From the NCBI RefSeq assembly GCF_001677475.2, contig NZ_CP015229.1: a DNA stretch of 64,000 bases, one strand, 5' to 3'. The notes under the pieces were generated by a model, which worked only from the letters and a program-made list of their open reading frames with translations, did no database searches and was not told the DNA's origin. Position 1 is the first letter of the stretch. The number at the start of each line of letters is the position of its first letter. The translations under genes were made by a program, and so were the position numbers. This document shows, piece by piece, positions 1,327 to 46,395 of this stretch. This DNA is from Escherichia coli (lineage in GTDB: Bacteria; Pseudomonadota; Gammaproteobacteria; Enterobacterales; Enterobacteriaceae).

Positions 1327-1751
1327 ATCCACCTCAATTAAAAATTGACCCTGTGAAAAATATGGTCGTTTTATAGGGTCGTCGTAAAAAAGTGACGACG
1401 GAAATAATGCGCGGCTATTTTAAAAACGAAGGCGAGTCATTCACCAGATAAATAAATCCAGTAAATTTGATTTAGGGCAACAGCGGGTTGTCCCATATAG
1501 TCATTTGTCTGATTGACAGTGTAGTGCAAGCGAAAGATTTAATCCTTTAGGCGTAATAAAAAATAATTTATCATGCTAATTATTTGATTTTGTTGTTTTT
1601 GCAGGCTTATCAGCAAGAGGGAGTATAACGCGATTATTCGCTCATTTTTCAGACATTTGCCATGCTTAAATGTGATGTCATCACGTATTAGCAAGGCCTT
1701 TCCCGTTATACTGCCAGCGTAAAGGATAAGTCACATATTTCTGGAGGGGAT

Positions 1752-3410
1752 ATGATTCTTGAGCGCGTTGAAATTGTGGGTTTTCGCGGTATCAACCGTT
1801 TGTCGTTGATGCTCGAACAAAACAACGTCCTGATTGGGGAGAACGCGTGGGGTAAATCCAGCTTGCTGGACGCCTTAACCCTGCTGCTATCGCCAGAATC
1901 AGATCTCTACCATTTTGAGCGCGACGATTTCTGGTTCCCGCCGGGAGATATCAACGGGCGAGAACATCATCTGCATATTATTTTGACCTTCCGCGAATCG
2001 CTGCCAGGCCGACATCGGGTTCGCCGCTATCGGCCGCTGGAAGCGTGCTGGACGCCATGCACCGATGGCTATCACCGTATTTTTTATCGTCTGGAAGGGG
2101 AGAGTGCGGAAGACGGCAGCGTGATGACACTGCGCAGTTTTCTCGATAAAGACGGACATCCGATTGATGTCGAGGATATTAACGATCAGGCACGCCATCT
2201 GGTGCGTTTAATGCCGGTGCTGCGCTTGCGTGATGCCCGTTTTATGCGTCGTATTCGTAACGGCACGGTGCCAAATGTCCCCAATGTGGAAGTCACCGCG
2301 CGCCAGCTCGATTTCCTCGCTCGTGAATTATCCTCACATCCGCAAAATCTCTCTGATGGACAGATTCGTCAGGGACTTTCCGCAATGGTACAGCTGCTTG
2401 AGCATTATTTCTCTGAGCAGGGGGCCGGACAGGCGCGATATCGTTTAATGCGGCGGCGGGCCAGCAATGAGCAACGAAGCTGGCGCTATCTGGATATCAT
2501 CAACCGGATGATTGACCGACCTGGAGGGCGCTCGTATCGGGTTATTTTGCTCGGCCTGTTTGCTACTTTATTGCAGGCAAAAGGCACATTGCGACTGGAT
2601 AAAGACGCCCGTCCATTGTTGCTGATTGAAGATCCAGAAACCCGTTTACACCCCATTATGCTTTCAGTTGCCTGGCATCTGTTGAATCTTCTGCCATTGC
2701 AGCGCATTGCCACCACCAACTCGGGTGAGTTGCTTTCGTTAACGCCGGTAGAGCATGTTTGCCGACTGGTACGTGAGTCCTCGCGCGTTGCCGCCTGGCG
2801 TCTGGGGCCGAGCGGCTTGAGTACCGAAGACAGCCGACGCATCTCTTTCCACATTCGTTTTAACCGTCCGTCATCGCTGTTTGCCCGTTGTTGGCTGCTG
2901 GTGGAAGGCGAAACGGAAACCTGGGTTATCAATGAACTGGCGCGTCAGTGCGGACATCATTTTGATGCCGAAGGGATCAAGGTCATTGAGTTTGCCCAGT
3001 CCGGGCTAAAGCCACTGGTTAAATTTGCCCGGCGAATGGGGATTGAATGGCATGTACTGGTCGATGGCGATGAAGCAGGGAAGAAATATGCTGCTACGGT
3101 ACGCAGCCTGTTGAATAACGATCGGGAAGCCGAACGAGAACATTTAACGGCGTTACCGGCGCTGGATATGGAACATTTTATGTATCGCCAGGGATTTTCC
3201 GATGTGTTCCACCGCGTGGCGCAAATCCCGGAAAATGTACCGATGAATCTGCGCAAAATTATCTCGAAAGCGATCCATCGCTCTTCCAAACCCGATCTTG
3301 CCATTGAAGTGGCAATGGAGGCCGGACGTCGTGGTGTGGACTCCGTACCGACGCTGCTGAAAAAAATGTTCTCACGCGTACTGTGGTTGGCGCGCGGTCG
3401 CGCGGATTAA
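1752..3410 (+). CDS. ybjD: OLD-family ATPase/Toprim-domain protein YbjD
   Basis: 552-aa ORF. N-terminal P-loop (GENAWGKSSLLDAL) and C-terminal Toprim-like segment (WLLVEGETETWVINELA). Length and context match ybjD. Confidence 0.9.
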   Translation: MILERVEIVGFRGINRLSLMLEQNNVLIGENAWGKSSLLDALTLLLSPESDLYHFERDDFWFPPGDINGREHHLHIILTFRESLPGRHRVRRYRPLEACWTPCTDGYHRIFYRLEGESAEDGSVMTLRSFLDKDGHPIDVEDINDQARHLVRLMPVLRLRDARFMRRIRNGTVPNVPNVEVTARQLDFLARELSSHPQNLSDGQIRQGLSAMVQLLEHYFSEQGAGQARYRLMRRRASNEQRSWRYLDIINRMIDRPGGRSYRVILLGLFATLLQAKGTLRLDKDARPLLLIEDPETRLHPIMLSVAWHLLNLLPLQRIATTNSGELLSLTPVEHVCRLVRESSRVAAWRLGPSGLSTEDSRRISFHIRFNRPSSLFARCWLLVEGETETWVINELARQCGHHFDAEGIKVIEFAQSGLKPLVKFARRMGIEWHVLVDGDEAGKKYAATVRSLLNNDREAEREHLTALPALDMEHFMYRQGFSDVFHRVAQIPENVPMNLRKIISKAIHRSSKPDLAIEVAMEAGRRGVDSVPTLLKKMFSRVLWLARGRAD

Positions 3411-4399
3411 CCGCGAAACATCGTGGCCATTTGTGGCTGAATAGCGTCGAGCATCTCATAGCGCCGACGGTATTCAGCCCGTTTTTTACTGGCGATTTCG
3501 GCAATCTCTTTTCGTGCTATCTGTGCTGGAAGGCGGTAATGGCGTTCAGCATCACATACGCCGCCAACCGATTCCCAGAAAGCGTTGTAATCAGCGTGGA
3601 TCTTGCCTTCTTTATCGCGATAACGCAGGCTGCGGTAAATATGCGTTTCATTGCTGACGGCAATAATCTGCTCTACCTGCAAACGTTGGGCAAACAGACA
3701 GGCCGCTTCCATCACGAGGCGTTTGGGAAATAGCCCGTGGCAGGCTTTCGTCGCATTCTGGATTTCCTGATGTGGAATTTCCCATTTTGCGCCTTGCAGT
3801 CCGCCAATAAACATCGTTCTTTTCCCCTGATATTCACACAGGGTAAACGTGAGCTCTGCCAGAGGAATACCTTCGCTGTTGCGGAACAGGATTGTGCTGT
3901 CACCTTCTTTATCCATTGAGATCATCATGGTCAGCTCAAGCGTGAACTGCTCGCCGTTTTTGCCTTCCAGTTTAGCCAGTTGCAGCCCGGGGGTATTCAA
4001 ATATAAGCTGAATTCTTCCGCCGACATACACCCGCGGAGTAACGCATAATGGTAACGTAACGCCTCCAGCAATTGCTTACGGCTAAGATTCGCCGCAAGG
4101 TAAGGGCGATGCAGACGCACAGGCAGTCGCGGCTGGCGCGTTAACAACACATTGAGATTGGGCCAGTGGGAAAGTTCGTTCATCCACTCAACGCTTAAAC
4201 GCGGCATAATCAACGAGCGCAGCAAAAATTTCTGGCGAAAACTACGGCGATGCCAGAATTTACCCGGCCGACACTGTCCACGTGCCAGACTAAGAAAAAG
4301 TGAGAGGCTGCTGAGAGATTCAGATGACGTAAAGGTCCGTTCGGTTAGCTGCGACATATTCATGAAATCAATGGTTGTATATGACGTCGATTTCACCAT
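3407..4399 (-). CDS. ybjX: DUF535/VirK-like protein YbjX
   Basis: 330-aa ORF convergent with ybjD (4-bp overlap of 3' ends). Position and length match ybjX. Confidence 0.85.
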   Translation of the reverse strand: MVKSTSYTTIDFMNMSQLTERTFTSSESLSSLSLFLSLARGQCRPGKFWHRRSFRQKFLLRSLIMPRLSVEWMNELSHWPNLNVLLTRQPRLPVRLHRPYLAANLSRKQLLEALRYHYALLRGCMSAEEFSLYLNTPGLQLAKLEGKNGEQFTLELTMMISMDKEGDSTILFRNSEGIPLAELTFTLCEYQGKRTMFIGGLQGAKWEIPHQEIQNATKACHGLFPKRLVMEAACLFAQRLQVEQIIAVSNETHIYRSLRYRDKEGKIHADYNAFWESVGGVCDAERHYRLPAQIARKEIAEIASKKRAEYRRRYEMLDAIQPQMATMFRG

Positions 4400-4513
4400 T
4401 GCGTATCTTAACCAAACATCAATAGTGTGATTACTAACGTAAATTTTAGGGTTTTGTTGATATTTCGTTGAAGTTAATGACCCGGATTGGCATATGGAGT
4501 ATTCAGAATATTT

Positions 4514-5629
4514 ATGAAAAAGCGGAAAACCGTGAAGAAGCGTTACGTTATTGCGCTGGTGATAGTCATCGCCGGGCTGATTACGTTATGGAGAATTCTT
4601 AACGCACCCGTGCCGACTTATCAGACGCTGATTGTGCGCCCCGGTGATTTACAGCAAAGCGTGCTGGCGACCGGAAAGCTGGACGCGCTGCGTAAGGTTG
4701 ATGTGGGCGCGCAGGTCAGCGGTCAGTTGAAAACGCTGTCGGTGGCGATTGGCGATAAAGTAAAAAAAGACCAGCTTTTAGGGGTTATTGATCCTGAACA
4801 GGCTGAAAACCAGATCAAGGAGGTCGAAGCAACGCTGATGGAGCTACGCGCGCAGCGGCAGCAGGCGGAAGCGGAGCTGAAACTGGCGCGGGTGACGTAT
4901 TCCCGTCAGCAACGTCTGGCACAAACGCAGGCGGTTTCACAGCAGGATCTCGACACCGCCGCGACGGAGATGGCTGTGAAACAGGCGCAAATTGGCACCA
5001 TTGACGCGCAAATCAAGCGCAATCAGGCTTCTCTCGATACGGCTAAAACCAATCTCGATTACACTCGCATCGTTGCCCCGATGGCCGGGGAAGTCACGCA
5101 AATCACCACTCTGCAAGGCCAGACGGTGATTGCCGCACAACAAGCACCGAACATTCTGACGCTGGCAGATATGAGCACCATGCTGGTAAAAGCGCAGGTT
5201 TCTGAAGCGGATGTAATCCACCTGAAGCCGGGGCAAAAAGCCTGGTTTACGGTACTAGGCGATCCGCTGACGCGCTACGAGGGGCAAATCAAGGATGTGC
5301 TACCGACGCCGGAAAAGGTTAACGACGCTATTTTCTATTACGCCCGTTTTGAAGTACCCAACCCCAATGGTTTGCTGCGGCTGGATATGACTGCGCAAGT
5401 GCATATTCAGCTCACCGATGTGAAAAATGTGCTGACGATCCCTCTGTCGGCGTTAGGCGATCCGGTTGGCGATAATCGTTATAAAGTCAAATTGTTGCGT
5501 AATGGTGAAACACGCGAGCGTGAAGTGACGATTGGCGCACGTAACGATACCGATGTTGAGATTGTCAAAGGGCTGGAAGCGGGCGATGAAGTGGTGATTG
5601 GTGAGGCCAAACCAGGAGCTGCACAATGA
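4514..5629 (+). CDS. macA: Macrolide efflux periplasmic adaptor MacA
   Basis: ORF 4487..5629. Start taken at the internal Met ([21 protein letters not shown]...), giving 371 aa. Membrane anchor plus coiled-coil adaptor; stop overlaps the macB start (ATGA). Confidence 0.9.
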
Positions 5630-7572
5630 CGCCTTTGCTCGAATTAAAGGATATTCGTCGCAGCTATCCTGCCGGTGATGAGCAGGTTGAGGTGCTGAAG
5701 GGCATCACCCTCGATATTTATGCGGGTGAGATGGTAGCGATTGTTGGCGCTTCGGGTTCCGGTAAATCGACCCTGATGAATATTCTCGGCTGTCTGGATA
5801 AGGCCACCAGCGGCACCTATCGCGTCGCCGGTCAGGATGTTGCCACGCTGGACGCCGATGCGCTGGCGCAACTGCGCCGCGAGCATTTCGGCTTTATTTT
5901 CCAGCGTTACCATTTGCTTTCGCATTTAACCGCCGAGCAGAACGTTGAAGTACCCGCCGTCTATGCCGGTCTTGAGCGGAAACAGCGGCTGCTTCGCGCC
6001 CAGGAGTTACTGCAACGACTGGGGCTGGAAGACCGTACAGAGTATTATCCGGCACAGCTTTCGGGCGGTCAGCAACAGCGCGTCAGCATCGCGCGGGCAT
6101 TGATGAACGGCGGTCAGGTAATTCTTGCCGATGAACCGACCGGCGCACTGGACAGCCATTCTGGCGAAGAGGTGATGGCGATCCTGCATCAGCTGCGCGA
6201 TCGCGGGCATACGGTGATTATCGTCACCCACGATCCGCAGGTCGCTGCTCAGGCTGAGCGGGTGATCGAAATTCGCGACGGCGAAATTGTGCGCAATCCT
6301 TCCGCCATTGAAAAAGTGAATGTTGCTGGCGGGACGGAACCTGTTGTCAACACGGCGTCTGGCTGGCGGCAGTTTGTCAGCGGTTTTAACGAGGCGCTGA
6401 CGATGGCATGGCGGGCGCTGGCAGCGAATAAAATGCGTACTTTACTGACCATGCTGGGTATTATTATCGGTATTGCGTCGGTGGTTTCCATTGTCGTGGT
6501 GGGTGACGCCGCCAAACAAATGGTGCTGGCGGATATTCGTTCTATTGGTACGAATACTATTGATGTCTATCCCGGGAAAGATTTTGGCGATGACGATCCG
6601 CAATATCAGCAGGCGCTGAAGTACGATGACTTAATCGCCATCCAAAAACAACCGTGGGTCGCCTCAGCCACACCTGCCGTCTCGCAAAACCTGCGCCTTC
6701 GTTATAACAATGTTGATGTTGCTGCCAGTGCCAATGGCGTGAGCGGCGATTATTTTAATGTCTATGGCATGACCTTCAGTGAAGGGAACACCTTTAATCA
6801 GGAGCAGCTGAACGGTCGTGCGCAGGTCATGGTTCTCGACAGTAATACTCGCCGCCAGCTTTTCCCCCATAAAGCAGATGTGGTTGGCGAGGTGATTCTG
6901 GTCGGCAATATGCCCGCCAGAGTCATTGGTGTGGCGGAAGAAAAACAGTCGATGTTTGGTAGCAGTAAAGTGCTGCGTGTCTGGCTACCTTACAGCACAA
7001 TGTCCGGGCGAGTTATGGGCCAGTCGTGGCTTAACTCCATTACTGTCAGGGTGAAAGAAGGATTTGACAGCGCCGAGGCGGAACAGCAACTCACGCGTTT
7101 ACTTTCACTGCGCCACGGAAAGAAGGATTTCTTTACCTGGAACATGGACGGCGTCTTGAAAACTGTTGAAAAGACCACACGTACTTTACAACTGTTTCTG
7201 ACGCTGGTGGCGGTGATTTCGCTGGTGGTGGGCGGTATTGGTGTAATGAATATTATGCTGGTGTCAGTGACCGAGCGGACGCGGGAAATTGGCATTCGCA
7301 TGGCTGTAGGTGCGCGAGCAAGCGATGTTTTGCAACAGTTCCTGATCGAAGCCGTACTGGTTTGCCTGGTCGGTGGCGCGTTGGGAATAACACTGTCACT
7401 GTTAATTGCTTTCACCTTGCAGCTTTTCTTACCCGGCTGGGAGATTGGTTTTTCACCGTTGGCGCTGCTGCTGGCGTTTCTCTGCTCGACGGTCACCGGG
7501 ATTTTATTTGGCTGGTTACCCGCACGAAATGCGGCACGACTGGATCCAGTAGATGCTCTGGCACGAGAGTAA
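5626..7572 (+). CDS. macB: Macrolide export ABC transporter MacB (fused ATPase/permease)
   Basis: 648-aa ORF. Walker [13 protein letters not shown] signature LSGGQQQR, Walker [12 protein letters not shown], followed by a FtsX-like permease domain. Confidence 0.95.
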
Positions 7573-7584
7573 TTTTTGAGATAA

Positions 7585-7612
7585 AAATGCCAGCCGATCG
7601 GGCTGGCATTTT
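7585..7612. terminator. Bidirectional intrinsic terminator between macB (+) and cspD (-)
   Basis: Hairpin aaatgccagcc-gatc-ggctggcattt flanked by A/T runs on both sides, lying between two convergent genes. Confidence 0.6.
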
Positions 7613-7644
7613 GCCTTTAGGATGTACACAATGAGACAGAAGAG

Positions 7645-7869
7645 CTATGCGACTGCCGCTTCTACTTCGACGGGCACAATAACACTGGCGTGATTGCCTT
7701 TTGGCCCCTGGTGGACATCAAACTGAACGGATTGTCCAGCTTTTAGCGTTCTGTAACCATCCATCTGAATGGTGGAATAATGAGCGAAAATATCTTCGCC
7801 GCCGCCTTCAGGGCAGATGAAACCAAACCCTTTGGCATTGTTGAACCACTTAACAGTACCCTTTTCCAT
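7645..7869 (-). CDS. cspD: Cold-shock-domain protein CspD (stationary-phase replication inhibitor)
   Basis: ORF 7645..7899. Start taken at MEKGTVKWFNNAKGFGFI... (74 aa), containing the RNP1-like cold-shock motif KGFGFI. Confidence 0.9.
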   Translation of the reverse strand: MEKGTVKWFNNAKGFGFICPEGGGEDIFAHYSTIQMDGYRTLKAGQSVQFDVHQGPKGNHASVIVPVEVEAAVA

Positions 7870-8192
7870 GCTTCGACATCCTTCGCAAATCTTATACAAA
7901 TAAGATGGAATAAACCGGGGTCAGAGAGGGGGGCTGTTCAAAACCTCGCCAACTCTAGAAATACAATTTAGAGAATTAGGGCGAGCCGTCAAGCATTTGA
8001 CAGGGGGCAAGGGGCAGGTATGAATCAAAAATTTGAAGCAGTTAACGCTATTGACAGGAATGTGACAGATGTCGCTGATGCCAACGATAGATGATAGTTA
8101 TCTATCATGTGGAGTAGATTGGTCAGGCAAATAAGCTCTTGTCAGCGGCAGGGCGTTCTGCCGATAACCGTAACCGAAGATGATAACTGACA

Positions 8193-8513
8193 ATGGGTAA
8201 AACGAACGACTGGCTGGACTTTGATCAACTGGCGGAAGAAAAAGTTCGCGACGCGCTAAAACCGCCATCTATGTATAAAGTGATATTAGTCAATGATGAT
8301 TACACTCCGATGGAGTTTGTTATTGACGTGTTACAAAAATTCTTTTCTTATGATGTAGAACGTGCAACGCAATTGATGCTCGCTGTTCACTACCAGGGGA
8401 AGGCCATTTGCGGAGTCTTTACCGCCGAGGTTGCAGAAACCAAAGTGGCGATGGTGAACAAGTACGCGAGGGAGAATGAGCATCCATTGCTGTGTACGCT
8501 AGAAAAAGCCTGA
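8193..8513 (+). CDS. clpS: ClpS adaptor of the ClpAP protease (N-degron recognition)
   Basis: 106-aa [50 protein letters not shown]..., immediately upstream of clpA. Confidence 0.95.
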
Positions 8514-8543
8514 ATGCAGGCATAAAAATTGGGGGAGGTGCCT

Positions 8544-10820
8544 ATGCTCAATCAAGAACTGGAACTCAGTTTAAATATGGCTTTCGCCAGAGCGCGCGAG
8601 CACCGTCATGAGTTTATGACCGTCGAGCACTTGTTACTGGCGCTGCTCAGTAACCCATCTGCCCGGGAGGCGCTGGAAGCGTGTTCTGTGGATTTGGTTG
8701 CGCTCCGTCAGGAACTGGAAGCCTTTATTGAACAAACCACACCCGTTCTGCCTGCCAGTGAAGAGGAGCGCGACACACAGCCGACGCTGAGTTTTCAGCG
8801 TGTACTGCAACGTGCGGTCTTCCATGTCCAGTCCTCCGGTCGCAATGAAGTTACCGGTGCAAACGTTCTGGTCGCTATCTTTAGCGAACAGGAGTCGCAG
8901 GCGGCGTATCTGTTGCGCAAACATGAAGTCAGCCGTCTCGATGTGGTGAACTTTATTTCTCATGGCACGCGTAAAGACGAGCCATCTCAGTCTTCTGAAC
9001 CAGGAAACCAGCCGAGCAGTGAAGAACAAGCTGGTGGGGAGGACCGTATGGAGAATTTCACGACTAACCTGAACCAGCTTGCACGCGTGGGAGGAATCGA
9101 CCCGCTGATTGGTCGTGAGAAGGAACTGGAGCGCGCCATTCAGGTTCTCTGTCGCCGCCGTAAAAACAACCCGCTGCTGGTCGGGGAGTCTGGCGTCGGT
9201 AAAACCGCCATTGCGGAAGGTCTTGCCTGGCGTATTGTTCAGGGCGATGTGCCGGAAGTGATGGCTGACTGTACGATTTATTCTCTCGATATCGGTTCTC
9301 TGTTAGCGGGCACAAAATATCGCGGCGACTTTGAAAAACGTTTTAAAGCGTTGCTCAAGCAGCTGGAGCAGGACACTAACAGCATCCTGTTTATTGATGA
9401 GATCCACACCATTATCGGTGCGGGTGCAGCGTCTGGTGGTCAGGTCGATGCGGCTAACTTAATCAAACCGTTGCTCTCCAGCGGTAAAATTCGCGTAATT
9501 GGTTCGACAACCTATCAGGAGTTCAGCAACATTTTCGAGAAAGACCGTGCTCTGGCGCGTCGCTTCCAGAAAATTGATATTACTGAACCGTCAATCGAAG
9601 AAACTGTTCAAATCATCAATGGCCTGAAACCGAAGTATGAAGCGCACCACGACGTGCGTTATACCGCAAAAGCGGTGCGTGCGGCGGTAGAGCTGGCGGT
9701 GAAATACATCAATGATCGTCATCTGCCGGATAAAGCGATTGATGTTATCGACGAAGCGGGCGCTCGCGCACGCCTGATGCCGGTAAGCAAACGCAAGAAA
9801 ACCGTTAATGTGGCGGATATTGAGTCCGTGGTGGCCCGTATTGCACGCATTCCAGAGAAGAGTGTTTCTCAGAGTGACCGCGATACTCTGAAAAACCTCG
9901 GCGATCGCCTGAAAATGCTGGTCTTCGGTCAGGATAAAGCCATTGAGGCGCTGACTGAAGCCATTAAGATGGCGCGTGCAGGTTTAGGTCACGAACATAA
10001 ACCGGTCGGTTCGTTCCTGTTTGCCGGCCCTACCGGGGTCGGGAAAACAGAGGTGACAGTACAGCTTTCCAAAGCCCTGGGCATTGAGCTTTTACGCTTT
10101 GATATGTCCGAGTATATGGAGCGTCATACCGTCAGCCGCCTGATTGGTGCACCTCCGGGATACGTTGGTTTTGATCAGGGTGGTCTGCTGACCGATGCGG
10201 TGATCAAACATCCGCACGCGGTGCTGCTGCTGGACGAAATCGAGAAAGCGCATCCGGACGTATTCAACATTCTGTTGCAGGTGATGGACAACGGCACGCT
10301 GACCGATAACAACGGACGCAAGGCAGATTTCCGTAACGTGGTGCTGGTGATGACCACCAACGCCGGGGTACGTGAAACCGAGCGCAAATCTATTGGCCTT
10401 ATCCACCAGGATAACAGCACCGATGCGATGGAAGAGATCAAGAAGATCTTTACGCCAGAGTTCCGTAACCGTCTCGACAACATTATCTGGTTCGATCATT
10501 TGTCAACCGACGTAATCCATCAGGTGGTGGATAAATTCATCGTCGAGTTGCAGGTTCAGTTGGATCAAAAAGGCGTTTCTCTGGAAGTGAGTCAGGAAGC
10601 ACGTAACTGGCTGGCCGAGAAAGGTTACGACCGGGCAATGGGTGCACGTCCGATGGCTCGCGTCATTCAGGACAACCTGAAAAAACCGCTCGCTAACGAA
10701 CTGCTGTTTGGCTCGCTGGTGGACGGCGGCCAGGTCACCGTTGCACTGGATAAAGAGAAAAATGAGCTGACCTACGGGTTCCAGAGTGCGCAAAAGCACA
10801 AGGCGGAAGCAGCGCATTAA
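8544..10820 (+). CDS. clpA: ATP-dependent Clp protease ATP-binding subunit ClpA
   Basis: ORF 8529..10820. Start taken at [19 protein letters not shown] (758 aa). Two AAA+ modules with Walker A motifs GESGVGKT and GPTGVGKT. Confidence 0.95.
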
Positions 10821-10844
10821 TCTGATTGTCAGGTAGGTTGGTCA

Positions 10845-10878
10845 AGTCCGTAATCTCGAAAGAGGTTGCGGACTTTTT
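10845..10878 (+). terminator. Putative intrinsic terminator downstream of clpA
   Basis: Inverted repeat agtccg...cggact followed by a T-run (ttttt) about 25 bp after the clpA stop. Confidence 0.5.
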
Positions 10879-11034
10879 ATTTATGGGGTGGAACGGTGAA
10901 AACCCTATTTTTGGAGGTGAAGGTAAGTTGTTGATAATTAGTGCTGCTGGAAAAGGTAAGGATAAAAAAGGGTGACAGCAGGAAAATGAGATGGTTTTGC
11001 TTTATTAACAACGGGCTAAACGTGTAGTATTTGA

Positions 11035-11122
11035 GTTCACTGCCGTACAGGCAGCTTAGAAATTCACAGGTAACATACTCCACCCGCCCACCATGTTCAC
11101 TGCCGTACAGACAGATAAAATG
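11035..11122 (+). CRISPR. Orphan type I-F CRISPR remnant: two 28-bp repeats and one 32-bp spacer, no cas genes in the window
   Basis: Repeat 1 gttcactgccgtacaggcagcttagaaa (11035..11062); spacer ttcacaggtaacatactccacccgcccaccat (11063..11094); repeat 2 gttcactgccgtacagacagataaaatg (11095..11122), degenerate at its 3' end. The repeat matches the I-F (Ypest-type) consensus I recall. The clpA-infA interval is a known site of such arrays in E. coli. Confidence 0.8.
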
Positions 11123-11165
11123 CGAAAAAAAAGCTCGCACTTTCGTACGAGCTCTTCTTTAAATA

Positions 11166-11253
11166 TGGCGGTGAGGGGGGGATTCGAACCCCCGATACGT
11201 TGCCGTATACACACTTTCCAGGCGTGCTCCTTCAGCCACTCGGACACCTCACC
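11166..11253 (-). tRNA. serW: tRNA-Ser (anticodon GGA)
   Basis: Reverse complement reads GGTGAGGTGTCCGAGTGGCTGAAGGAGCACGCCTGGAAAGTGTGTATACGGCAACGTATCGGGGGTTCGAATCCCCCCCTCACCGCCA: acceptor stem, long variable arm typical of tRNA-Ser, T-arm GGTTCGAATCC, encoded CCA end. Confidence 0.9.
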
Positions 11254-11505
11254 AAATTGTTTTGTCGCCTGACCTCATGGGGGCAACGGGGCGCTACTAT
11301 AGGGAGTTGGAGTAAAACGGTCAAGAAGAATTTTAATGATAATTATTGTTTGCTCATACTGTAAACAAGTTGTGCAGTATATCTACATCGAGACAAGTTA
11401 TGGATTTATACTTCCAAAGTACTTCATACATATCACAAAATAAAAAGGTCGGCTAAACCGACCTTTTACTCGTTCTTTCTCTTCGCCCATCAGGCGGTAA
11501 AACAA

Positions 11506-11727
<222 letters not shown>

Positions 11728-12008
11728 ATCCTCTGGGGTATCACTACCGTAATTTGAACCGGCAAGATAATGCCGAAGTTCTGTAAATAAGTAAAGATTT
11801 GCGCGCTAAATCGCAACAAACAGGTTCGGCACATTACTCCGAAAACACACGGCTAAGCCGCACCAAAAGCGCAACGTATAAGGGAGCGGTGAGATAAACG
11901 ATGGGCGTTACCTGACGCGAAAAATTCCTTATCGGCAGCGGGGTAATGAGCGTAACCAACTCTGCGACCGCAATTATAACACTCTGGGGAGAAATGTGCC
12001 GAAAACAT

Positions 12009-12713
12009 TCATTCTTGTGGTGAAAACAAGCACCGTGGTACCCAGAAATTATTCGGCAATCGTCCGAGGCGCATTTGATTGAGATAATTGAGATAATCCC
12101 GGCGAGGAATTTCGCAGGCACCAAGCGACGCTGTGTGATCGTTAAGTACCTGGCAGTCGATAAGTTTACCGCCATGACCAATAAATTCCTCACAGAATAC
12201 CAGAAGCGCCGTTTTAGACGCATTTTCCATCCGGCTGAACATGGACTCGCCACAAAATAGCGTTCCCTGGGCCACGCCGTACATACCGCCGACAAGCTCA
12301 TCTTCACGCCAGACTTCAATAGAGTGGGCATGACCGAGTTCGTGAAGGCGATGGTAGGCTTCGACCACGCCACGCGTGATCCAGGTTCCTTCTTCGCGAT
12401 CGCTGGCACAGCCTTCAATGACCTGACCAAAAGCGTAATTCATCGTGACTCGATAGGGCGAGCGTTTATGAAATCGCTTCATACTACGGCTGATATGCAG
12501 TGATTCTGGCCATAGCACCGCGCGAGGATCGGGCGACCACCAGAGGATGGGGTCGCCTGGAGAAAACCACGGAAAAATACCACGCTGGTAAGCCATTAAC
12601 AGGCGCGCAGGGCTAAGATCGCCCCCCAGTGCCAGCAGGCCGTTAGGCTCACGTAATGCGCCTTCCGGGGAAGGGAAGGCTATTGAATGGCGAGAAAGCT
12701 GAACCAGGCGCAT
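12009..12713 (-). CDS. aat: Leucyl/phenylalanyl-tRNA--protein transferase
   Basis: 234-aa ORF; position between infA and cydC and length match aat. Confidence 0.9.
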
Positions 12714-12754
12714 GACCGCAAAACTCCACGCTAGTCGGATCGTTCAATAATAGC

Positions 12755-14476
12755 TTACAAACCCTGCTTAAACTGGTAATAACGCCCCTGTCTGGCAAGC
12801 AGTTCTGCGTGAGTACCTTGCTCAATAATTTGCCCGTTGTCCATCACTATTATTTTCTGGAAACGAGAGAGTCCGCGAAGTCGATGGGTGACCATTAACA
12901 CCGTTTTCTCATGCATCATTTCTGCAAGCAATTCAAGGATCTGACTTTCGGTTGTGGCATCTAAGCCTTCTGTAGGTTCATCCAGCAATACCAGCGGCGC
13001 ATCATGTAACAGCGCACGGGCGATAGCCAGACGGCGCAGTTCACCACCGGAGAGCTGGCGTCCGCCTTCACCTAACCAACTGTTGAGACCTGCATCCTCG
13101 AGCAGCTTCTCCAGACCAACGCGACGTAAGATCTCCGCCAGAGCCTCATCACTACTGCCAGGTGAGGCGAGTAACAGATTATCACGCAGCGTGGCGCTAA
13201 ACAGATGCACTCGCTGTGGCACAACGCTGATGGTCTGTCGTAGAGTCGCTTCATTCAGACTGGCTATGGGGCTATCGTTAAGCAAAATCTCGCCCTGTTG
13301 CGGGTCCCATGCGCGGGTCAGCAGTTGTAACAGTGTTGATTTGCCGCATCCGGTTCGCCCGAGAATCGCTATATGTTCCCCGGCGTTTACCTGAAGAGAA
13401 ATCCCTTTAAGTGCCTGTTGGGATTGCTCCGGATAAGTGAACTGAACATCCCGTAATGTCAGCGAAACGCGATCGGCAACACGAGTTTGGGTATCAGGGA
13501 AGGTGACCTCCGGTTTTTGATCCGTTAAATCAGTGATCCGAACGGCAGAGGCAATGACTTGCCCCAGATGCTGAAATGCACCCGTTACTGGTGCCAGTGC
13601 TTCAAACGCGGCTAACGCGCAGAAGACAAACAGGGCAATTAACGCGCCGGGTTGAGCATTGCCGCCAACGCCGCCAGACGCCATCCACAGCATCAGGATC
13701 ACCGCTAACGCGCCAATGAGCAGCATTATCGCTTGCGACAATGCGGTTAGTTCAGATTGACGGCGTTGCGCTTCCAGCCATTGAATTTCTGTATTCTCTA
13801 GTTGCGTGCGATAACGATCGCTGGCACCAAAAATGGTCAGCTCAGCTTGCCCTTGCAGCCAGGCCGTCAGTTGTTGGCGATACTGCCCGCGAAGATGAGT
13901 CAGATTTTGCCCGGTGCTTTTTCCCGCACGATAAAACAGCGGTGGCATCAGGAAAAGCGTCAGTAACATAATGCCGCCCAGCGTAAAGGCGAGGGTGAAA
14001 TCAAGGAAACTTAACCCGACTGTCACCACCATAATCACCACAAAAGCGCCCACCAGCGGCGAAATAACGCGCAGGTAAAGATGATCGAGCGTATCAACAT
14101 CCGCCACCACGCGGTTGAGCAATTCGCCCTGACGATAGCGCGCCAGTCCGGCAGGGGAGAGGGGTAGCAATTTGCTGAAGGTGTAAATGCGCAGATGCTG
14201 CAACACGCGGAAAGTCGCGTCGTGACTTACCAGACGTTCAAAATAACGCCCGGCAGTACGGGTGATTGCTGCGCCACGCACGCCCGCAGCGGGTAGCATG
14301 TAGTTGAAGCTGTACAGTCCGGCAACCCCCGCAATCGCTGAGGCGGAGAGGAACCAGCCCGAAAGTGTCAACAGACCGATACTGGCGAGCAGCGTGACAA
14401 TTGCCAGCACGATACCAAGACTTAACATCCATTTATGACGTTTATACAGTGCCAGATAGGGTAGCAAAGCGCGCAT
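12755..14476 (-). CDS. cydC: Glutathione/cysteine ABC exporter CydC (cytochrome bd assembly)
   Basis: 573-aa ORF. N-terminal six-helix transmembrane domain plus ABC ATPase (Walker A GRTGCGKST, signature LSGGELRR, Walker B LLLDEPTEGLD). Confidence 0.95.
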   Translation of the reverse strand: MRALLPYLALYKRHKWMLSLGIVLAIVTLLASIGLLTLSGWFLSASAIAGVAGLYSFNYMLPAAGVRGAAITRTAGRYFERLVSHDATFRVLQHLRIYTFSKLLPLSPAGLARYRQGELLNRVVADVDTLDHLYLRVISPLVGAFVVIMVVTVGLSFLDFTLAFTLGGIMLLTLFLMPPLFYRAGKSTGQNLTHLRGQYRQQLTAWLQGQAELTIFGASDRYRTQLENTEIQWLEAQRRQSELTALSQAIMLLIGALAVILMLWMASGGVGGNAQPGALIALFVFCALAAFEALAPVTGAFQHLGQVIASAVRITDLTDQKPEVTFPDTQTRVADRVSLTLRDVQFTYPEQSQQALKGISLQVNAGEHIAILGRTGCGKSTLLQLLTRAWDPQQGEILLNDSPIASLNEATLRQTISVVPQRVHLFSATLRDNLLLASPGSSDEALAEILRRVGLEKLLEDAGLNSWLGEGGRQLSGGELRRLAIARALLHDAPLVLLDEPTEGLDATTESQILELLAEMMHEKTVLMVTHRLRGLSRFQKIIVMDNGQIIEQGTHAELLARQGRYYQFKQGL

Positions 14477-34875: not shown

Positions 34876-37224
34876 ATGTATAGCATTACCGAAAAATTAA
34901 ACTCAAGATTTAACACTGCGGTTATATTAGCTGTTACTGTCTATATTGTCTTGTCATTTATTACCGCAATTGATTTCCATAAAAAAATAGCAGAAAACTC
35001 TGCACAGATTAACCTTATACTCATCAATAACAATTTGAATAATTTTTTTTCTAAAGTTGAAAAAGAGGCTGATGCATTAAAAGATGCAATCTATCTGTTA
35101 CATGATGAAGATGAAATAAAGCGAGCAGTCCTTCATCGCATGAAAAAAATAGACGCGGTTAATTTAGTAGGGATAATGCTCAATAATGGAAAATATCTTA
35201 GCTTTATTCGAACTGAGAATGGGGAGGTAAAATTTCTGGGGCAATCAGAACCCGGTAAACCTTTTATTGGTGACGATGGTGATATCAGCGATAACTACTT
35301 TAATCCGGAATCACGCCCATGGAATAAATTACCGAGGGGGACTTATTCAAAATGGTCACCATGGTATAATTGTTATGGTATTGCCGGAAAAAAATGTTTT
35401 TCGTTTTCACTACGACCATCCGAAGAAGAAAAAAATTCATTTGCTTTGAAGTTAATACATCTGGATGTTGATGAAAAATATTTCAGTAATTTTTTAAATA
35501 AACTGGGTGGTGATTCTGATATTTTATTCATGGAACAAAACAAAAGGATTATGGTGGGTAATGAAAAATCAATGTTACATCTTATTGTCCGTGATTTATC
35601 GGGAAGTTATAACATAAGCAATAATAGTGGCAACTATACAGACAATGTTATCTCACTCCCCTGGCTTCCTGATGTCAGATTCCATTATTTCCACTATCAA
35701 AAATCAGAAGATACAAACATCAATAAATATTTTACACTGATGTTTTTATGTGGCTTGGTTTGTTTCTGTTTATTATGGTATATCGTTGAAAAAATAACAA
35801 GAAAAATCAAAGGTGAATCCAGCAAACTGATAGAACATCTGAAAAAATTAGCTAATTCAGTATATCGCAACGACACAATTGATATTGTGCAAAATGACAG
35901 TGGTGAGATTGTTGAACTCAAAAAGATCATTAATAATATCAGCGATAAATACAAGGAGCGTATGGACCGATTACTTAATCTTGTGTCCTATGAACAAGGA
36001 AGTTGCTTTTATATTAATAAGGCTATTATTGAAACTAATAATAAAACCTATTTGGCAATTGGTATGCTTTGCATCTATGGATTAGAGTTTGTTGAAGCGG
36101 TATATGGAAATCAGAAATTTCATGAGATTTTTAATGATATAAAATCTAAGATATCACAAAAATATTCAAAATATTGTGATATCGTAAAAATCTCAACTGA
36201 AACATACTTGTTGCTATGTCACACTGATTGCGAAGAGTTCATCGAAAAATTATCGGTTTTAAACTTTCCTGAACATATATTTTGCATAAGAAATATATAT
36301 ATCCACAAGATTGCCATTTGCGAAAATTTTTCAGGGGAAAATGTATCGATTTATGAAAGGAAACTGAAACTGGCATTAACAGCTATGCGGGAAAATAAAG
36401 AATCTGAATTTATTTTTTATGATGACATCAAAGTCCATGAACTTGATCAAAAGGTCTGGGTGGCAGGAAATATAAAAAAAGCGATTGCGAGTAATGAGCT
36501 TTATTTAGTATATCAACCGATTGTTGATATGGATAATAATAGGGTTGTAGGCGCAGAGGCGTTATGTCGCTGGTTGTCCTGCGAAAATGGGGTAATACCG
36601 CCATCAATTTTTGTACCTGTTGCTGAAGAAATAGGATTAATTAAAGAACTGGGTGATTTTGTTCTCGAAACAGCTATTAGCGAATTTGGGGTGTTTAGTT
36701 GTGAATATGAGGTTGCTAACGATTTTCTCCTGCATATCAATGTTTCTCCCTGGCAATTAAATGAATTTGACTTCCACACTCGTGTTCTTACTTTAATTAA
36801 TGCATTTGGTGTAAATGTTGAACAAATCTGCCTGGAGATCACCGAATCAGCAGTAAAAGATATAAATGATAGCTTTTACAATAATATAAATATTTTAAAA
36901 GAAAATGGTATCAAGATTTCCCTTGATGATTTCGGAAGTGGATTAGCTGACCTGAAAAAACTTTATAAAGTAAGACCTGATAGCATTAAAATTGATTCAG
37001 AGTTTACCTCTGGTATTTTCGATGAAACTAACAAGGTTGTATATTTTATATCCAATCTTGCTCGTGAAGAAAATATGCCGGTAATAGCTGAAGGTGTTGA
37101 AACTGAAAGTCAGGCTAGAGAGTTGCAAAAATTAGGATTTTCTCATGTTCAGGGATACTTATACCAGAAACCGTTACCGTTTTCAGAATGGCATATAGAC
37201 AACAAACCGAAAAAAAGAAAATAA
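34876..37224 (+). CDS. Membrane-bound c-di-GMP phosphodiesterase: TM, periplasmic sensor domain, TM, cytoplasmic linker region, EAL domain
   Basis: 782 aa. Hydrophobic helices near residues 15-35 and ~285-305. EAL-domain motifs all present: QPIVD, EALCRW, NVSP, LEITES, DDFGSG, KIDSEF, AEGVETE, QGYLY. No GG(D/E)EF signature upstream of the EAL domain. Confidence 0.85.
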   Translation: MYSITEKLNSRFNTAVILAVTVYIVLSFITAIDFHKKIAENSAQINLILINNNLNNFFSKVEKEADALKDAIYLLHDEDEIKRAVLHRMKKIDAVNLVGIMLNNGKYLSFIRTENGEVKFLGQSEPGKPFIGDDGDISDNYFNPESRPWNKLPRGTYSKWSPWYNCYGIAGKKCFSFSLRPSEEEKNSFALKLIHLDVDEKYFSNFLNKLGGDSDILFMEQNKRIMVGNEKSMLHLIVRDLSGSYNISNNSGNYTDNVISLPWLPDVRFHYFHYQKSEDTNINKYFTLMFLCGLVCFCLLWYIVEKITRKIKGESSKLIEHLKKLANSVYRNDTIDIVQNDSGEIVELKKIINNISDKYKERMDRLLNLVSYEQGSCFYINKAIIETNNKTYLAIGMLCIYGLEFVEAVYGNQKFHEIFNDIKSKISQKYSKYCDIVKISTETYLLLCHTDCEEFIEKLSVLNFPEHIFCIRNIYIHKIAICENFSGENVSIYERKLKLALTAMRENKESEFIFYDDIKVHELDQKVWVAGNIKKAIASNELYLVYQPIVDMDNNRVVGAEALCRWLSCENGVIPPSIFVPVAEEIGLIKELGDFVLETAISEFGVFSCEYEVANDFLLHINVSPWQLNEFDFHTRVLTLINAFGVNVEQICLEITESAVKDINDSFYNNINILKENGIKISLDDFGSGLADLKKLYKVRPDSIKIDSEFTSGIFDETNKVVYFISNLAREENMPVIAEGVETESQARELQKLGFSHVQGYLYQKPLPFSEWHIDNKPKKRK

Positions 37225-37228
37225 AGCA

Positions 37229-38569
37229 ATGTTCAAATATAAAAAAAAGGCGGCAGTGATCTGTTTTTTGTATTTTTTGTGCGTCGCTGTAGTAACTTGT
37301 TATTTGTACACCATTCATGTTAAAGGCCGTATAAATTCGGTGAAGGTATCTATTGTAGATAGTGGGCTTGCAATAGCTAATGTTTCTGAGTATCGCCGCT
37401 CAGTATCTAATAATATATTTTATGAACTTGAGGTTTCGCCAGAAGAGTTGTTAAAAAAAATACGCAATAGCTTTGCTGGCTATGAAAACCCTGGATATTT
37501 GTATGATCTCGGTCCTTATATGATTAGCGATGGTAAATGTATCAAAGTCACAACGAAAGGAGATAATTTTTGTGACGACATAGTTTCCTCTATTAGGGTA
37601 ATTAATGAATTTGAAAGAGGCATTATTAGCTTAAAAAATAAGTGCTATGTTTATTATGCTCATCCCATTGCAAAACGTACAAGTTTGATATCAGTGGTAG
37701 ATCCTGAACGTTATTTATCTTTGATAAGAAATCAATCAGGGGAACGAGAAGATATCTATGTATCATTTTATGATATTAATGATAATGAAAAGAAAATCGC
37801 AGGTGATGATTTTTTGATAAATGATGCAGTATTTGAGATGTCAGCTATCACTCTGTCGTATTCTTATCTTCCAGAAATGATGTTTATTGTTGCCTATAAA
37901 AAAAGTAAATATCTATATATATGTGCGTTTTTCGTTTTTGCATCGGCAATATCTGCAGTCATAATGTATGTTTATTATGTTAAATTATTGCGTGATATTA
38001 TAAATAAGGGTAGATTGGAAAAAGAATCTATATTGTCGAATCATCAATATGATTTACGTGGAGAAAATCTATTCTTTAATACGGAAGAGATTAATGCAAT
38101 TCGAGAGATATATGACTTTGGCACTTGTGATGCATTAACCAGGGCTTCTGGTCGCCGGAGTTTTGATAAAGAAATCAAGATACTGAGAAAAAATTTTGGC
38201 TACCTGTGTCTATTTGATGTGGATAAATTTAAAACCATTAATGATAAGTTTGGTCATTTATTTGGTGATGAAGTACTCATCAAACTTGTTAATATCATTA
38301 AAGAAGAGTTACCCCGTCGTGAAGGGGAAATATACCGGTTTGGCGGTGATGAGTTTGCTATTATTTATTATGAGAAAGATAAAAATAAGCTATCAAGAAT
38401 TTTGCACAGAGTTGTTCATTTCGCCATTGGTGGGTTAAATTGTAGTTGCAGTATAGGTGTTGCCAGCACAGATGAGTGCATGAATAACATTGAACGGTTG
38501 AAATTGCTGGCAGATGAACGGTTATATAAAAGTAAGCAAAATGGCCGAGCACAGATAACGTGGTGTTGA
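37229..38569 (+). CDS. Membrane-bound diguanylate cyclase: TM, periplasmic sensor domain, TM, GGDEF domain
   Basis: 446 aa, starting 5 bp after the upstream stop. Two hydrophobic helices flank a ~200-aa periplasmic segment. GGDEF-domain motifs: DALT..RR, LFDVDKFKTINDKFGH, GDEVL, RFGGDEFAIIY, ADERLYKSKQNGR. No RxxD inhibitory site immediately upstream of GGDEF. Confidence 0.85.
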   Translation: MFKYKKKAAVICFLYFLCVAVVTCYLYTIHVKGRINSVKVSIVDSGLAIANVSEYRRSVSNNIFYELEVSPEELLKKIRNSFAGYENPGYLYDLGPYMISDGKCIKVTTKGDNFCDDIVSSIRVINEFERGIISLKNKCYVYYAHPIAKRTSLISVVDPERYLSLIRNQSGEREDIYVSFYDINDNEKKIAGDDFLINDAVFEMSAITLSYSYLPEMMFIVAYKKSKYLYICAFFVFASAISAVIMYVYYVKLLRDIINKGRLEKESILSNHQYDLRGENLFFNTEEINAIREIYDFGTCDALTRASGRRSFDKEIKILRKNFGYLCLFDVDKFKTINDKFGHLFGDEVLIKLVNIIKEELPRREGEIYRFGGDEFAIIYYEKDKNKLSRILHRVVHFAIGGLNCSCSIGVASTDECMNNIERLKLLADERLYKSKQNGRAQITWC

Positions 38570-38653
38570 TATTTTAATTTGCATGGCATTGGTCATCGAT
38601 GTTTACAAAAATCACACAGTTCAAGTTATATTATTAATGAATCGTTAAGTGCA

Positions 38654-40768
38654 ATGCTCATAAAAAATAAAGTAATATTAAACAAAATCCTTTTGGTTGT
38701 TGCTATACTGCTATGTTTTGTTTTTTTATCAATTGTTGAACAGCCCCTTGGATTTTATCAACAAACATTATTTTCAATTATTATTTGTATCGCTGCTATC
38801 TTCCTTAATTTTCTCAAAGGAAGGATAATTACTCTGATTCTAATGGGTGTTGGAATACTCATATCATCCCGATATCTATGGTGGCGTTACTCTTCTTCAG
38901 TAATCCTGGATGAATTTCCAGACTGTTTATTTTCAGTCACGCTATTAGTTGCTGAGACGTATGCATGGTTTGTTTTATTACTTGGTTACTTTCAGGTTTG
39001 CTTCCCGCTGAACCGAGAAAGTATACCCTTACCAGAGAATAAAGAAGAATGGCCCGTTGTTGATATATTAATCCCCACATATAACGAACCCTTTACAGTC
39101 GTTAAGAATACAGTTTATGGTGCGTTGGCCTTAGACTGGCCAACGGATAAATTAAATATCTGGCTCCTTGATGATGGCGCCAGGGACGAGTTCAGGAAAT
39201 TCGCGAACGAGTTAGGTATTTACTATGTCGCAAGAGAAACACATGAACATGCTAAGGCCGGAAATATAAATAATGCGCTTAAAATAGCTAATGGCGAATT
39301 TGTTGCTATTTTCGATTGCGATCATATACCCTCGGTTTCTTTTTTAAAGAAAACGATGGGCTGGTTTATCGCCGATAAAAAATTATCGATGTTGCAAACA
39401 CCACATCATTTTTTTTCCCCCGACCCTTTTGAGCGAAATTTGGGGCAGTTTCGGCAAAAGCCAAATGAAGGACACCTTTTTTATGGGTTAATCCAGAATG
39501 GTACGGATACATGGAATGCTTCATTTTTTTGTGGTTCATGTGCAATCATCCGTAGATCTGCTCTGGATGAGGTTGGAGGCATTGCAGTCGAAACAGTAAC
39601 AGAAGATGCGCATACGTCGTTACGCTTGCATCGTGCAGGTTATAGCTCTGCGTATCTTCGCTATCCTCTGGCTGCCGGGCTAGCCACCGAAACATTGTCT
39701 GCTCATATTGGACAACGGATTCGGTGGGCTCGAGGCATGATTCAAATCTTGCGTATTGACAATCCATTATTGGGCAAGGGGCTGACATTATCACAGCGCC
39801 TTTGCTATCTCAGCAGCATGATGCATTTTTTATCAGGTGTGCCACGCCTGATTTTCTTGTTCGCACCGTTATGTCCTATTTTCTTTTCGGTCAATCTGAT
39901 CGATGCATCAGTTGCAGATATTATGTCTTATGTTTTACCTTATCTATTTGTTATTATTTTAACTAATTCAAGAGTACAAGGTAAATACAGACATTCATTC
40001 TGGAATGAGATTTATGAAATGGTTCTGGCCTGGTATATTACGCTACCAACGCTTGTAGCTTTACTTGCGCCAGCAAAAGGTCGTTTTAACGTTACGGCCA
40101 AAGGGGGACTGATAAAAAATAAGTTTGTTGACTGGCGAATTTCCTATCCCTATCTTATTTTTGCTATTTTAAATGTAATCGGGCTGATAATAGGTGTTAT
40201 TAATGTTTATAGTTTGCAAGGGCATATTGCCATCTTGAATTTGTTTTGTTTAATCTGGTTGTTTTATAACGCAATTATTATTGGCGCAACTTTGGCTGTT
40301 TCTATTGAACAAAAGCAGGTGCGTTTTTCTCCCCGTATTGATGTTTCTTTCAAGGGCGTTATACAACTGGATGATGGACGGCGCTATCCTTGTTCTGTTC
40401 TTGATTTTTCCGAAGGAGGATTAGGTGTAATCCTTGATAATATCTCCGACGTAAAAGATATGCTTAAAGCACAGCAATTGTCTCTTTATCTGGATGATAG
40501 CAACGGGAAATGTGATATTCCGGTAGAAATAGTTCATGCTTACAATAATAAAATTGGTCTGAAGATTATGCCAATGAGTTATGAACAAAGTGTTAATTAT
40601 GTAAGAGCAACGTTTTCTCGTGATTCATTATGGCAAGAGTGGAATAATAAAATTAGACGGGACAATATTCTAAAGAGTTTTTTTGAAATATGTTTCATCT
40701 CTCTGAAAGGTTATTGCAATATGGTTTTTTATATTCTGCGGACACTGAAAAGCAGTTCCAAAAGTTAG
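38654..40768 (+). CDS. BcsA-like family-2 processive beta-glycosyltransferase with C-terminal PilZ domain (c-di-GMP-gated synthase)
   Basis: ORF 38579..40768 begins with TTG; first in-frame ATG is at 38654 (704 aa). Catalytic motifs: DDGARDE, FDCDH, QTPHHFFSPDPFERN, FFCGSCA, TEDAHTSLRLH, QRIRWARG. PilZ motifs RFSPRID and DFSEGGLG. Confidence 0.85.
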   Translation: MLIKNKVILNKILLVVAILLCFVFLSIVEQPLGFYQQTLFSIIICIAAIFLNFLKGRIITLILMGVGILISSRYLWWRYSSSVILDEFPDCLFSVTLLVAETYAWFVLLLGYFQVCFPLNRESIPLPENKEEWPVVDILIPTYNEPFTVVKNTVYGALALDWPTDKLNIWLLDDGARDEFRKFANELGIYYVARETHEHAKAGNINNALKIANGEFVAIFDCDHIPSVSFLKKTMGWFIADKKLSMLQTPHHFFSPDPFERNLGQFRQKPNEGHLFYGLIQNGTDTWNASFFCGSCAIIRRSALDEVGGIAVETVTEDAHTSLRLHRAGYSSAYLRYPLAAGLATETLSAHIGQRIRWARGMIQILRIDNPLLGKGLTLSQRLCYLSSMMHFLSGVPRLIFLFAPLCPIFFSVNLIDASVADIMSYVLPYLFVIILTNSRVQGKYRHSFWNEIYEMVLAWYITLPTLVALLAPAKGRFNVTAKGGLIKNKFVDWRISYPYLIFAILNVIGLIIGVINVYSLQGHIAILNLFCLIWLFYNAIIIGATLAVSIEQKQVRFSPRIDVSFKGVIQLDDGRRYPCSVLDFSEGGLGVILDNISDVKDMLKAQQLSLYLDDSNGKCDIPVEIVHAYNNKIGLKIMPMSYEQSVNYVRATFSRDSLWQEWNNKIRRDNILKSFFEICFISLKGYCNMVFYILRTLKSSSKS

Positions 40769-40833
40769 TTCTAATTTCTGACTGCTAATTAAATATATTG
40801 TTTGTGTTTATTATGGTTGTTGAATTTTTTAAA

Positions 40834-43134: not shown

Positions 43135-43246
43135 TTCATCATCATTTCTATTTTGCGGCTCCATTCTGTCCTGACTTTATACAGGCAGGGAGCTGCGCCC
43201 GTTCTGTTTTTAATAAAAAGTGAGTTAACACCTGATTGAGGCAGGC

Positions 43247-46354: not shown

Positions 46355-46395
46355 TGAGGTAGAATCAGAAGGTTAAAACTCGGAAATTAAATCCA

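Follow-up and report, generated by a model that had tools for sequence, protein, structure and literature searches.

A single-spacer orphan type I-F CRISPR array matching cas1f in the clpA-serW interval of Escherichia coli

The window analyzed here, the whole 64-kb stretch of DNA, contains, beyond the end of clpA at position 10820, an orphan CRISPR array followed by the tRNA-Ser(GGA) gene serW and then infA. This part of the window is collinear with the annotated clpS-clpA-tRNA-Ser-infA-aat-cydC region of Escherichia coli K-12, to which it is 97.2% identical. The features of the interval, with their coordinates in the window, are as follows.

8544-10820, plus strand: clpA, an ORF ending at 10820; context gene and upstream boundary of the locus
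10844-10875, plus strand: predicted intrinsic clpA terminator, which the terminator scan shows as a 14-pair stem with a T-run behind it; the same element as inverted repeat I5
10880-11034, plus strand: CRISPR leader, with a polymorphic distal half of the O157/B2 type (10880-10954) and a conserved proximal 80 nt (10955-11034)
11035-11062, plus strand: repeat 1, GTTCACTGCCGTACAGGCAGCTTAGAAA, a perfect canonical 28-nt type I-F repeat
11063-11094, plus strand: spacer, TTCACAGGTAACATACTCCACCCGCCCACCAT, 32 nt, anti-cas1f
11095-11122, plus strand: second copy of the repeat, GTTCACTGCCGTACAGACAGATAAAATG
11095-11114, plus strand: truncated terminal repeat, the first 20 nt of the repeat with the substitution G17A, 19/20 identical to repeat 1
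11115-11122, plus strand: flanking DNA rather than repeat, ATAAAATG, at the position of nt 21-28 of the second copy and running into the serW terminator
11055-11114, plus strand: predicted mature crRNA of 60 nt, if Cas6f is supplied (8-nt handle, 32-nt spacer and 20-nt hairpin handle), placed by the Cas6f site
11125-11160, minus strand: intrinsic terminator of serW, a 16-pair stem followed by eight T in the terminator scan, adjoining the array
11166-11253, minus strand: serW, tRNA-Ser (GGA), identified by ARAGORN, 53.8 bits against the Rfam tRNA family, and placed as in the layout of the LF82 locus
11506-11724, minus strand: infA, a 72-aa ORF identified from the K-12 annotation; context gene

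The clpA terminator forms the upstream limit of the CRISPR leader, and the serW terminator probably also bounds the CRISPR transcript. Two ORFs that extend over the array (10877-11140 on the minus strand, 87 aa; 11031-11162 on the plus strand, 43 aa) were rejected as mechanical and have no annotation in the RefSeq genomes listed. The length of the interval varies within the species. In the E. coli B lineage and in some other strains, ~175 bp annotated as 'RtT sRNA' are inserted between the orphan array and serW and extend it to ~520 bp, as compared with 345 bp; the example examined is an E. coli B derivative (NZ_CP117469.1; positions 543-678 of extracted locus L005).

Judged by its sequence, the element is an orphan type I-F array with one spacer. 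From 11035 to 11122 the DNA reads base for base as given in a preliminary description, with a repeat, a 32-nt spacer and a second copy, and the assignment made there, an orphan type I-F array with a single 32-nt spacer in the clpA-infA interval, is borne out by the comparison with curated repeat families that the same description had named as a possible refutation. Repeat 1 matches the Rfam family CRISPR-DR4 (RF01317) over model positions 1-28 with a score of 50.1 bits (gathering score 35, E = 1.2e-10), and the other features of this repeat family, a 32-nt spacer, a 60-bp start-to-start periodicity and a hairpin, are also present. The second copy reaches only 20 bits against the same model, as expected of a terminal repeat. 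It had been described as a 28-bp repeat degenerate at its 3' end, and over its first 20 nt it is indeed a repeat, with the substitution G17A to be added to the description, but its last 8 nt are flanking DNA, found unchanged behind the terminal repeat in each of the orphan arrays examined. The repeat finder recovers the 20-nt core twice, 95% identical and with a spacing of exactly 60 bp. There are no further copies of the repeat or of the spacer in the 64-kb window, nor any in shuffled sequences, and the window contains no other I-F or I-E repeats. With only two copies present, and with RefSeq lacking an annotation here in most genomes, the pair could in principle be a chance direct repeat, or a REP/BIME or tRNA-associated repeat, and no CRISPR at all. 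This has a negligible probability and is refuted by three observations: a repeat pair with 19/20 identity is expected by chance less than 0.01 times anywhere in the window, the CRISPR-DR4 match is full-length and above the gathering score, and the repeat is identical to those in the 10-, 23- and 37-repeat arrays of I-F-bearing strains.

The terminal repeats of functional I-F arrays (LF82, E69 and 503440) likewise diverge exactly after nt 20. Cas6f, also known as Csy4, cleaves after G20 of the repeat, so that the first 20 nt of a terminal repeat suffice for production of the last crRNA. Nucleotides 6-20 of repeat 1 are predicted to form the hairpin that is the Cas6f/Csy4 substrate, with a 5-bp stem and a 5-nt loop (-8.6 kcal/mol). 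The terminal repeat, the would-be crRNA 3' handle and Cas6f hairpin, has a predicted stability of only -1.4 kcal/mol, G17A turning the C9-G17 pair into a C-A mismatch, and in the O157-type allele of the terminal repeat G17 is retained and the hairpin is intact. Given this drop in predicted stability, crRNA maturation or loading may be impaired in the G17A allele, an effect judged from predicted thermodynamics only; Cas6f, which binds this hairpin very tightly, might tolerate the substitution.

The statement that no cas genes lie nearby holds, as regards I-F cas genes, for the entire 64-kb window. Searches by tblastn with the six Cas proteins of LF82 returned noise, with the sole exception of an 11-aa match to Cas1f, and this match is to the spacer itself. 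The array is separated from serW by 43 bp and in LF82 the same gap is filled by the cas genes, the order there being clpA, leader, 10-repeat array, cas1f, cas3f, csy1, csy2, csy3, cas6f, serW, leader, 23-repeat array and infA. A second array (CRISPR4.2) between serW and infA is absent, and the window has no other repeat-like sequence. A complete I-F system is recognized by adjacent cas1f, cas2/3f, csy1-3 and cas6f genes, and the window does not contain one.

The target of the spacer, which the preliminary description had regarded as open, is cas1f, as was published in 2010 (PMC2886076). The spacer corresponds to the antisense strand of this gene over codons ~34-44 and the match directly follows a 5'-CC PAM. 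The I-F PAM is CC on the spacer-sense strand, or GG by the convention of Almendros 2012 (PMC3506596), and its complement in cas1f is the GG of a glycine codon. Identity to the spacer is 31/32 in E69, 30/32 in LF82 and 29/32 in 503440 and ATCC 43896. The LF82 protospacer lies ~100 nt into cas1f, with mismatches at spacer positions 4 and 6. The E69 protospacer, CC followed by TTCACTGG..., is equal to the O157:H7 version of the spacer and differs from the spacer in the window only at position 6, and the allele shared by 503440 and ATCC 43896 has an additional difference at position 10. Following the CC, the three protospacer alleles read TTCACTGGTAAC in E69, TTCGCTGGTAAC in LF82 and TTCGCTGGTGAC in 503440 and ATCC 43896; in the extracted loci these sites are located at 12001-12032 of L001, at 924-955 of L012 and, in L013 and L014, on the minus strand at position 2356.

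As this cas1f-derived sequence is present at the site where cas1f would sit, it might be taken for a scar, a residue of the gene that deletion of the operon had spared between two repeats. Such an origin is scarcely credible and is effectively refuted by the orientation, the length and the PAM. The gene is co-oriented with clpA and the spacer, being its antisense strand, is inverted; the match is exactly 32 nt long with the CC PAM immediately before it; it derives from ~100 nt inside the ORF, at neither end; and the cas3f-derived spacers of sister arrays have the same properties. With its reversed orientation, exact 32-nt length and adjoining PAM, the spacer is best taken as a product of genuine adaptation.

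Comparison of the spacer with phage and plasmid databases, also proposed in the preliminary description, was carried out with INPHARED, PLSDB and IMG/VR and revealed no foreign target. Among the INPHARED phages there is just a 17-nt chance match, and among the PLSDB plasmids just a partial match, of 88%, to a Vitreoscilla cas1f. IMG/VR has one match, to a fragment of the E. coli chromosome that carries clpS-clpA and a two-spacer orphan array and is no virus. From these searches, the spacer would seem to have no mobile-element target. In 100,044 species-representative genomes, with spacer positions 4 and 6 left free, only the E69 cas1f and the orphan array of one 'Proteobacteria' MAG were found, with no sign of the element outside Escherichia at that stringency. 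The E. coli-type cas1f is similarly absent from PLSDB plasmids and from the phages searched, where the best identity is ~75%, so that no current mobile source of the threat is apparent.

Positions 4 and 10 of the protospacer are synonymous third-codon positions in cas1f, the difference at position 4 being AGT to AGC (Ser). The difference at spacer position 6 (T6A) would result in a Ser-to-Cys change and is seen in no cas1f allele examined, and so most likely arose in the array. In a type I crRNA-target duplex, every sixth base, including position 6, is flipped out and unpaired. An E69-type cas1f would, by this comparison, be a seed-perfect target for the spacer. The three resident cas1f genes examined, which represent two alleles of the complete-genome set (201 genomes at ≥99% identity to LF82 and 40 at ~96%), all have the mismatch at seed position 4, and priming rather than direct interference is consequently to be expected with the resident alleles. 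None of the anti-cas1 spacer variants observed has a matching seed in the common resident cas1f alleles.

Ten other copies of the locus were compared with that in the window. The spacer and the G17A terminal repeat of the window recur in K-12 and in one MAG, the O157:H7 array has the spacer TTCACTGG... together with an intact terminal hairpin, one strain has a 4-bp deletion within the spacer, and other cas-less strains have a different single spacer or two to three spacers. There are six distinct spacers in nine other orphan arrays, corresponding to 5 protospacers, and all match cas1f or cas3f of LF82 with 1-4 mismatches; a CC PAM is present at 4/5 of these protospacers. When an orphan array has several spacers, the anti-cas1 spacer is always leader-distal, and so is the oldest, and the cas3f-derived spacers are leader-proximal. 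This order would fit the pattern expected if the cas1 spacer had primed later acquisitions from the neighbouring gene.

Two of the related arrays are on contigs of unusual composition or classification. The MAG contig JADFJT010000085.1, assigned to a 'Proteobacteria bacterium', has over positions 1-1338 the K-12-type orphan array, whose flanks show 94% identity to the window, and then, right after serW, ~11 kb of unrelated ORFs (1339-12277), which could be an island at the tRNA-Ser gene or reflect a chimeric assembly. The contig IMGVR_UViG_2534682060_000012 is filed as viral, yet is E. coli chromosome (clpS-clpA, 98.9% identical to K-12). Its array (3874-4021) has an anti-cas3f spacer and then the anti-cas1f spacer, and its first repeat also has G17A, which suggests repeat-to-repeat conversion. 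The single-spacer forms in K-12 and E2855 could be derived from a two-spacer array of this type by a single repeat-repeat deletion.

Alignment shows that the proximal 80 nt of the leader are homologous to the leader of the functional CRISPR4.1 array of LF82. Over eight aligned loci, the mean pairwise difference is 0.148 for the distal leader and 0.038 for the proximal leader, and repeat 1 is invariant. The term 'remnant', as first applied to the array, undersells an element whose proximal leader and repeat 1 are conserved with a functional array. A simple scan did not find a sigma-70 consensus promoter on the plus strand of the leader, which is weak evidence either way. In the predicted crRNA, the last 8 nt of repeat 1, CUUAGAAA, would constitute the 5' handle. 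As the array is positioned between two terminators, a discrete small transcript is possible, and co-option of orphan arrays by other systems can occur (PMC11300857). The transcript might then have a role that does not depend on Cas proteins, as a small regulatory RNA, or might serve as a source of guides, for example for an I-F3 CRISPR-associated transposon. We consider this very improbable, as a search of the window and of E. coli genomes gave no match to the spacer besides cas1f and the array itself, the predicted 60-nt RNA is no more structured than chance would give (z = 0.39), and no sRNA family matches above its gathering score.

The entire 345-bp interval is 93.6% identical to that of K-12 and 98.0% identical to that of O157:H7, and the best match among complete genomes, at 98.9%, is FDAARGOS_497, in which the array has one extra spacer. 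As the distal leader is of the O157/B2 type and the spacer, terminal repeat and serW terminator have K-12-type polymorphisms, the interval in the window (10880-11165) is recombinant.

For the core genes of the window (7600-13600 and 31002-55000), identity to the best-matching genome among 5,426 complete E. coli genomes is only 97.2-97.7%, and strain N3 is collinear with the window over 24 kb with 96.3% identity. From these values, the source lineage appears to be without a representative among the complete E. coli assemblies and is possibly a cryptic clade. The window also has an accessory island, at ~34900-46400 between ycaM and pflA, that encodes an EAL phosphodiesterase, a GGDEF protein and a second bcsA-bcsB-bcsC cellulose synthase cluster. 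When 6 kb of this island (40000-46000) were used as the query, 9 of the 5,426 complete genomes matched with at least 80% coverage, the best, at 95.5%, being strain N3.

Sequences that match the spacer are present in 2,578 of the 5,426 complete E. coli genomes, exactly in 1,432, with one mismatch in 888 and with two or three in 258. Most are in unannotated DNA at the same locus, the two-mismatch class includes annotated cas1f genes (e.g. that of LF82), and no more than 4 of the 5,426 genomes have two spacer-matching places. The spacer adjoins the terminal repeat in 2,326 genomes (43%), as counted with an 86-nt block that runs from the repeat tail through the spacer and terminal repeat into the serW terminator and that had to be covered to at least 80%; this block is 100% identical in many E. 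coli genomes. The intergenic region is matched in 5,422 of the 5,426 genomes and cas1f is present in 241, all 244 matches being chromosomal, in agreement with the earlier statement that E. coli strains that lack the I-F cas genes keep such arrays (PMC3903273). In the I-F-bearing E. coli loci examined, cas1f is located at the clpA-serW locus.

The array is already known, its target having been published in 2010 and an anti-cas function reported in 2016. Touchon & Rocha 2010 designated it CRISPR3 and an 'anti-CRISPR', with spacers that match cas1, cas3 and csy2 of the Ypest subtype (I-F), and reported that every E. coli genome without those cas genes has one or more of these spacers (PMC2886076). 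They argued that its retention is not explained by simple inertia and proposed the 'anti-CRISPR' role (PMC2886076). In the nomenclature of the Mojica group (Diez-Villasenor/Almendros), the arrays are CRISPR4.1-2 at the CRISPR-III locus (PMC3903273). Residual function, which the preliminary description had also left open, was reported in 2016 by Almendros et al. (Nat Microbiol 1:16081), whose results are taken here from two reviews from the same laboratory (PMC8616872; PMC5972030). According to these reviews, the native orphan arrays are constitutively expressed and elicit interference and primed adaptation against plasmids that carry I-F cas genes, with the Cas proteins provided by the incoming operon. 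The array in the window is at the clpA-infA (CRISPR-III) locus, has a CRISPR4.1-like leader and has a PAM-adjacent spacer that matches a cas gene, three of the features by which anti-cas orphan CRISPR4 arrays are recognized. We assign a probability of about 0.78 to the reading that it is the known anti-cas orphan I-F array, which would block re-entry of an I-F system.

As no Cas6f or Csy proteins are encoded here, the array would be powerless alone and inactive until these were supplied from outside. On arrival of a cognate I-F operon, its Cas6f would process the leader-driven transcript, with a cut behind nt 20 in every repeat, generating the 60-nt crRNA, and the incoming Csy complex with Cas2/3 would then be guided to the incoming cas1f. 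With a matching seed, as in the E69-type gene, direct interference would destroy the DNA; with a mismatch at seed position 4, as in the LF82-type gene, primed adaptation would extend the array with new spacers taken from cas genes. As a result, an active I-F system would be unable to establish itself. The array probably originated by a self-targeting acquisition in an I-F-positive ancestor.

The same history could have left nothing but an inert fossil, the scar of an old autoimmunity after which the cas operon was lost, with no function today at least in the G17A allele. The earliest proposal in the literature was that cas genes were lost once spacers directed at them had been gained (Diez-Villasenor 2010, cited by PMC2886076 and PMC8616872). 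The lack of cas genes in the window, the near abolition of the predicted terminal hairpin by G17A, the drift of the spacer at position 6 and its 4-bp deletion in one strain, the failure to find a consensus promoter, and the lack of an extant mobile E. coli-type I-F system on the plasmids and phages searched are all in keeping with such a fossil. Against this, divergent lineages show little or no variation in repeat 1 and in the proximal leader, the distal leader being four-fold more variable, and the spacers of orphan arrays are almost exclusively anti-cas. The two or three anti-cas spacers in some cas-less strains imply acquisition episodes while Cas1 and Cas2/3 were present. Activity of the native orphan arrays has been published, as recounted in the two reviews (PMC8616872; PMC5972030), and simple inertia has been argued to be insufficient (PMC2886076). 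We consider the fossil unlikely, and prefer the anti-cas array that would block re-entry of the I-F system. It is conceivable, and we suggest it only tentatively, that within this anti-cas family the K-12-type allele, with spacer T6A and G17A, is a decayed anti-cas module and that these changes, together with the change at protospacer position 4 of cas1f, are traces of an arms race between anti-cas spacers and cas alleles; of the cas1f alleles, the E69 type alone is a perfect match to the ancestral spacer. If so, approximately a quarter of the complete E. coli genomes (the 1,432 with the exact spacer) would carry a disarmed guard.

When a chromosome keeps a one-spacer array whose sole known target is its own CRISPR-Cas system, this is read as evidence that a host may be better off without active I-F immunity, which for example limits plasmid uptake. 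The G17A hairpin defect, the seed polymorphism of cas1f and the recombinant leader are the residual points that the locus offers to those who work on anti-cas arrays.

Among the closest known systems is the orphan CRISPR4 array of E. coli, as in K-12, which occupies the same clpA-serW locus and is identical to the array in the window from repeat 1 through the spacer and the G17A terminal repeat to the side of the serW terminator. The K-12 array has a K-12-type distal leader whereas that in the window is of the O157/B2 type. Like the functional CRISPR4.1 arrays of LF82, E69 and UTI89, the array is adjacent to clpA, has a homologous proximal leader and an identical repeat, and has a terminal repeat that is kept through nt 20. 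The functional arrays have, however, 9-36 spacers, with the anti-cas1 spacer in none of the loci examined, and are followed by cas1f through cas6f and, beyond serW, by a second array, both of which are lacking in the window. An association of a self-DNA spacer with loss of the cas operon has also been described elsewhere (Stern et al. 2010; Lactobacillus acidophilus NCFM; Pectobacterium), and in Pectobacterium type I-F self-targeting selects for deletions (Vercoe 2013, PMC3630108). The array in the window differs in that its target is the cas operon itself, and the orphan array has been kept species-wide and, far from a mere accident, is reported to be active against incoming cas genes. The mini-arrays and solitary repeat units described by Faure 2019, and reviewed in PMC8616872, also have one spacer, a full and a truncated repeat and no cas genes, and depend on Cas proteins in trans. 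They are, however, carried by viruses and plasmids and directed against competitors or host systems, whereas the array in the window is chromosomal, resides at a fixed core locus and targets its cognate cas genes.
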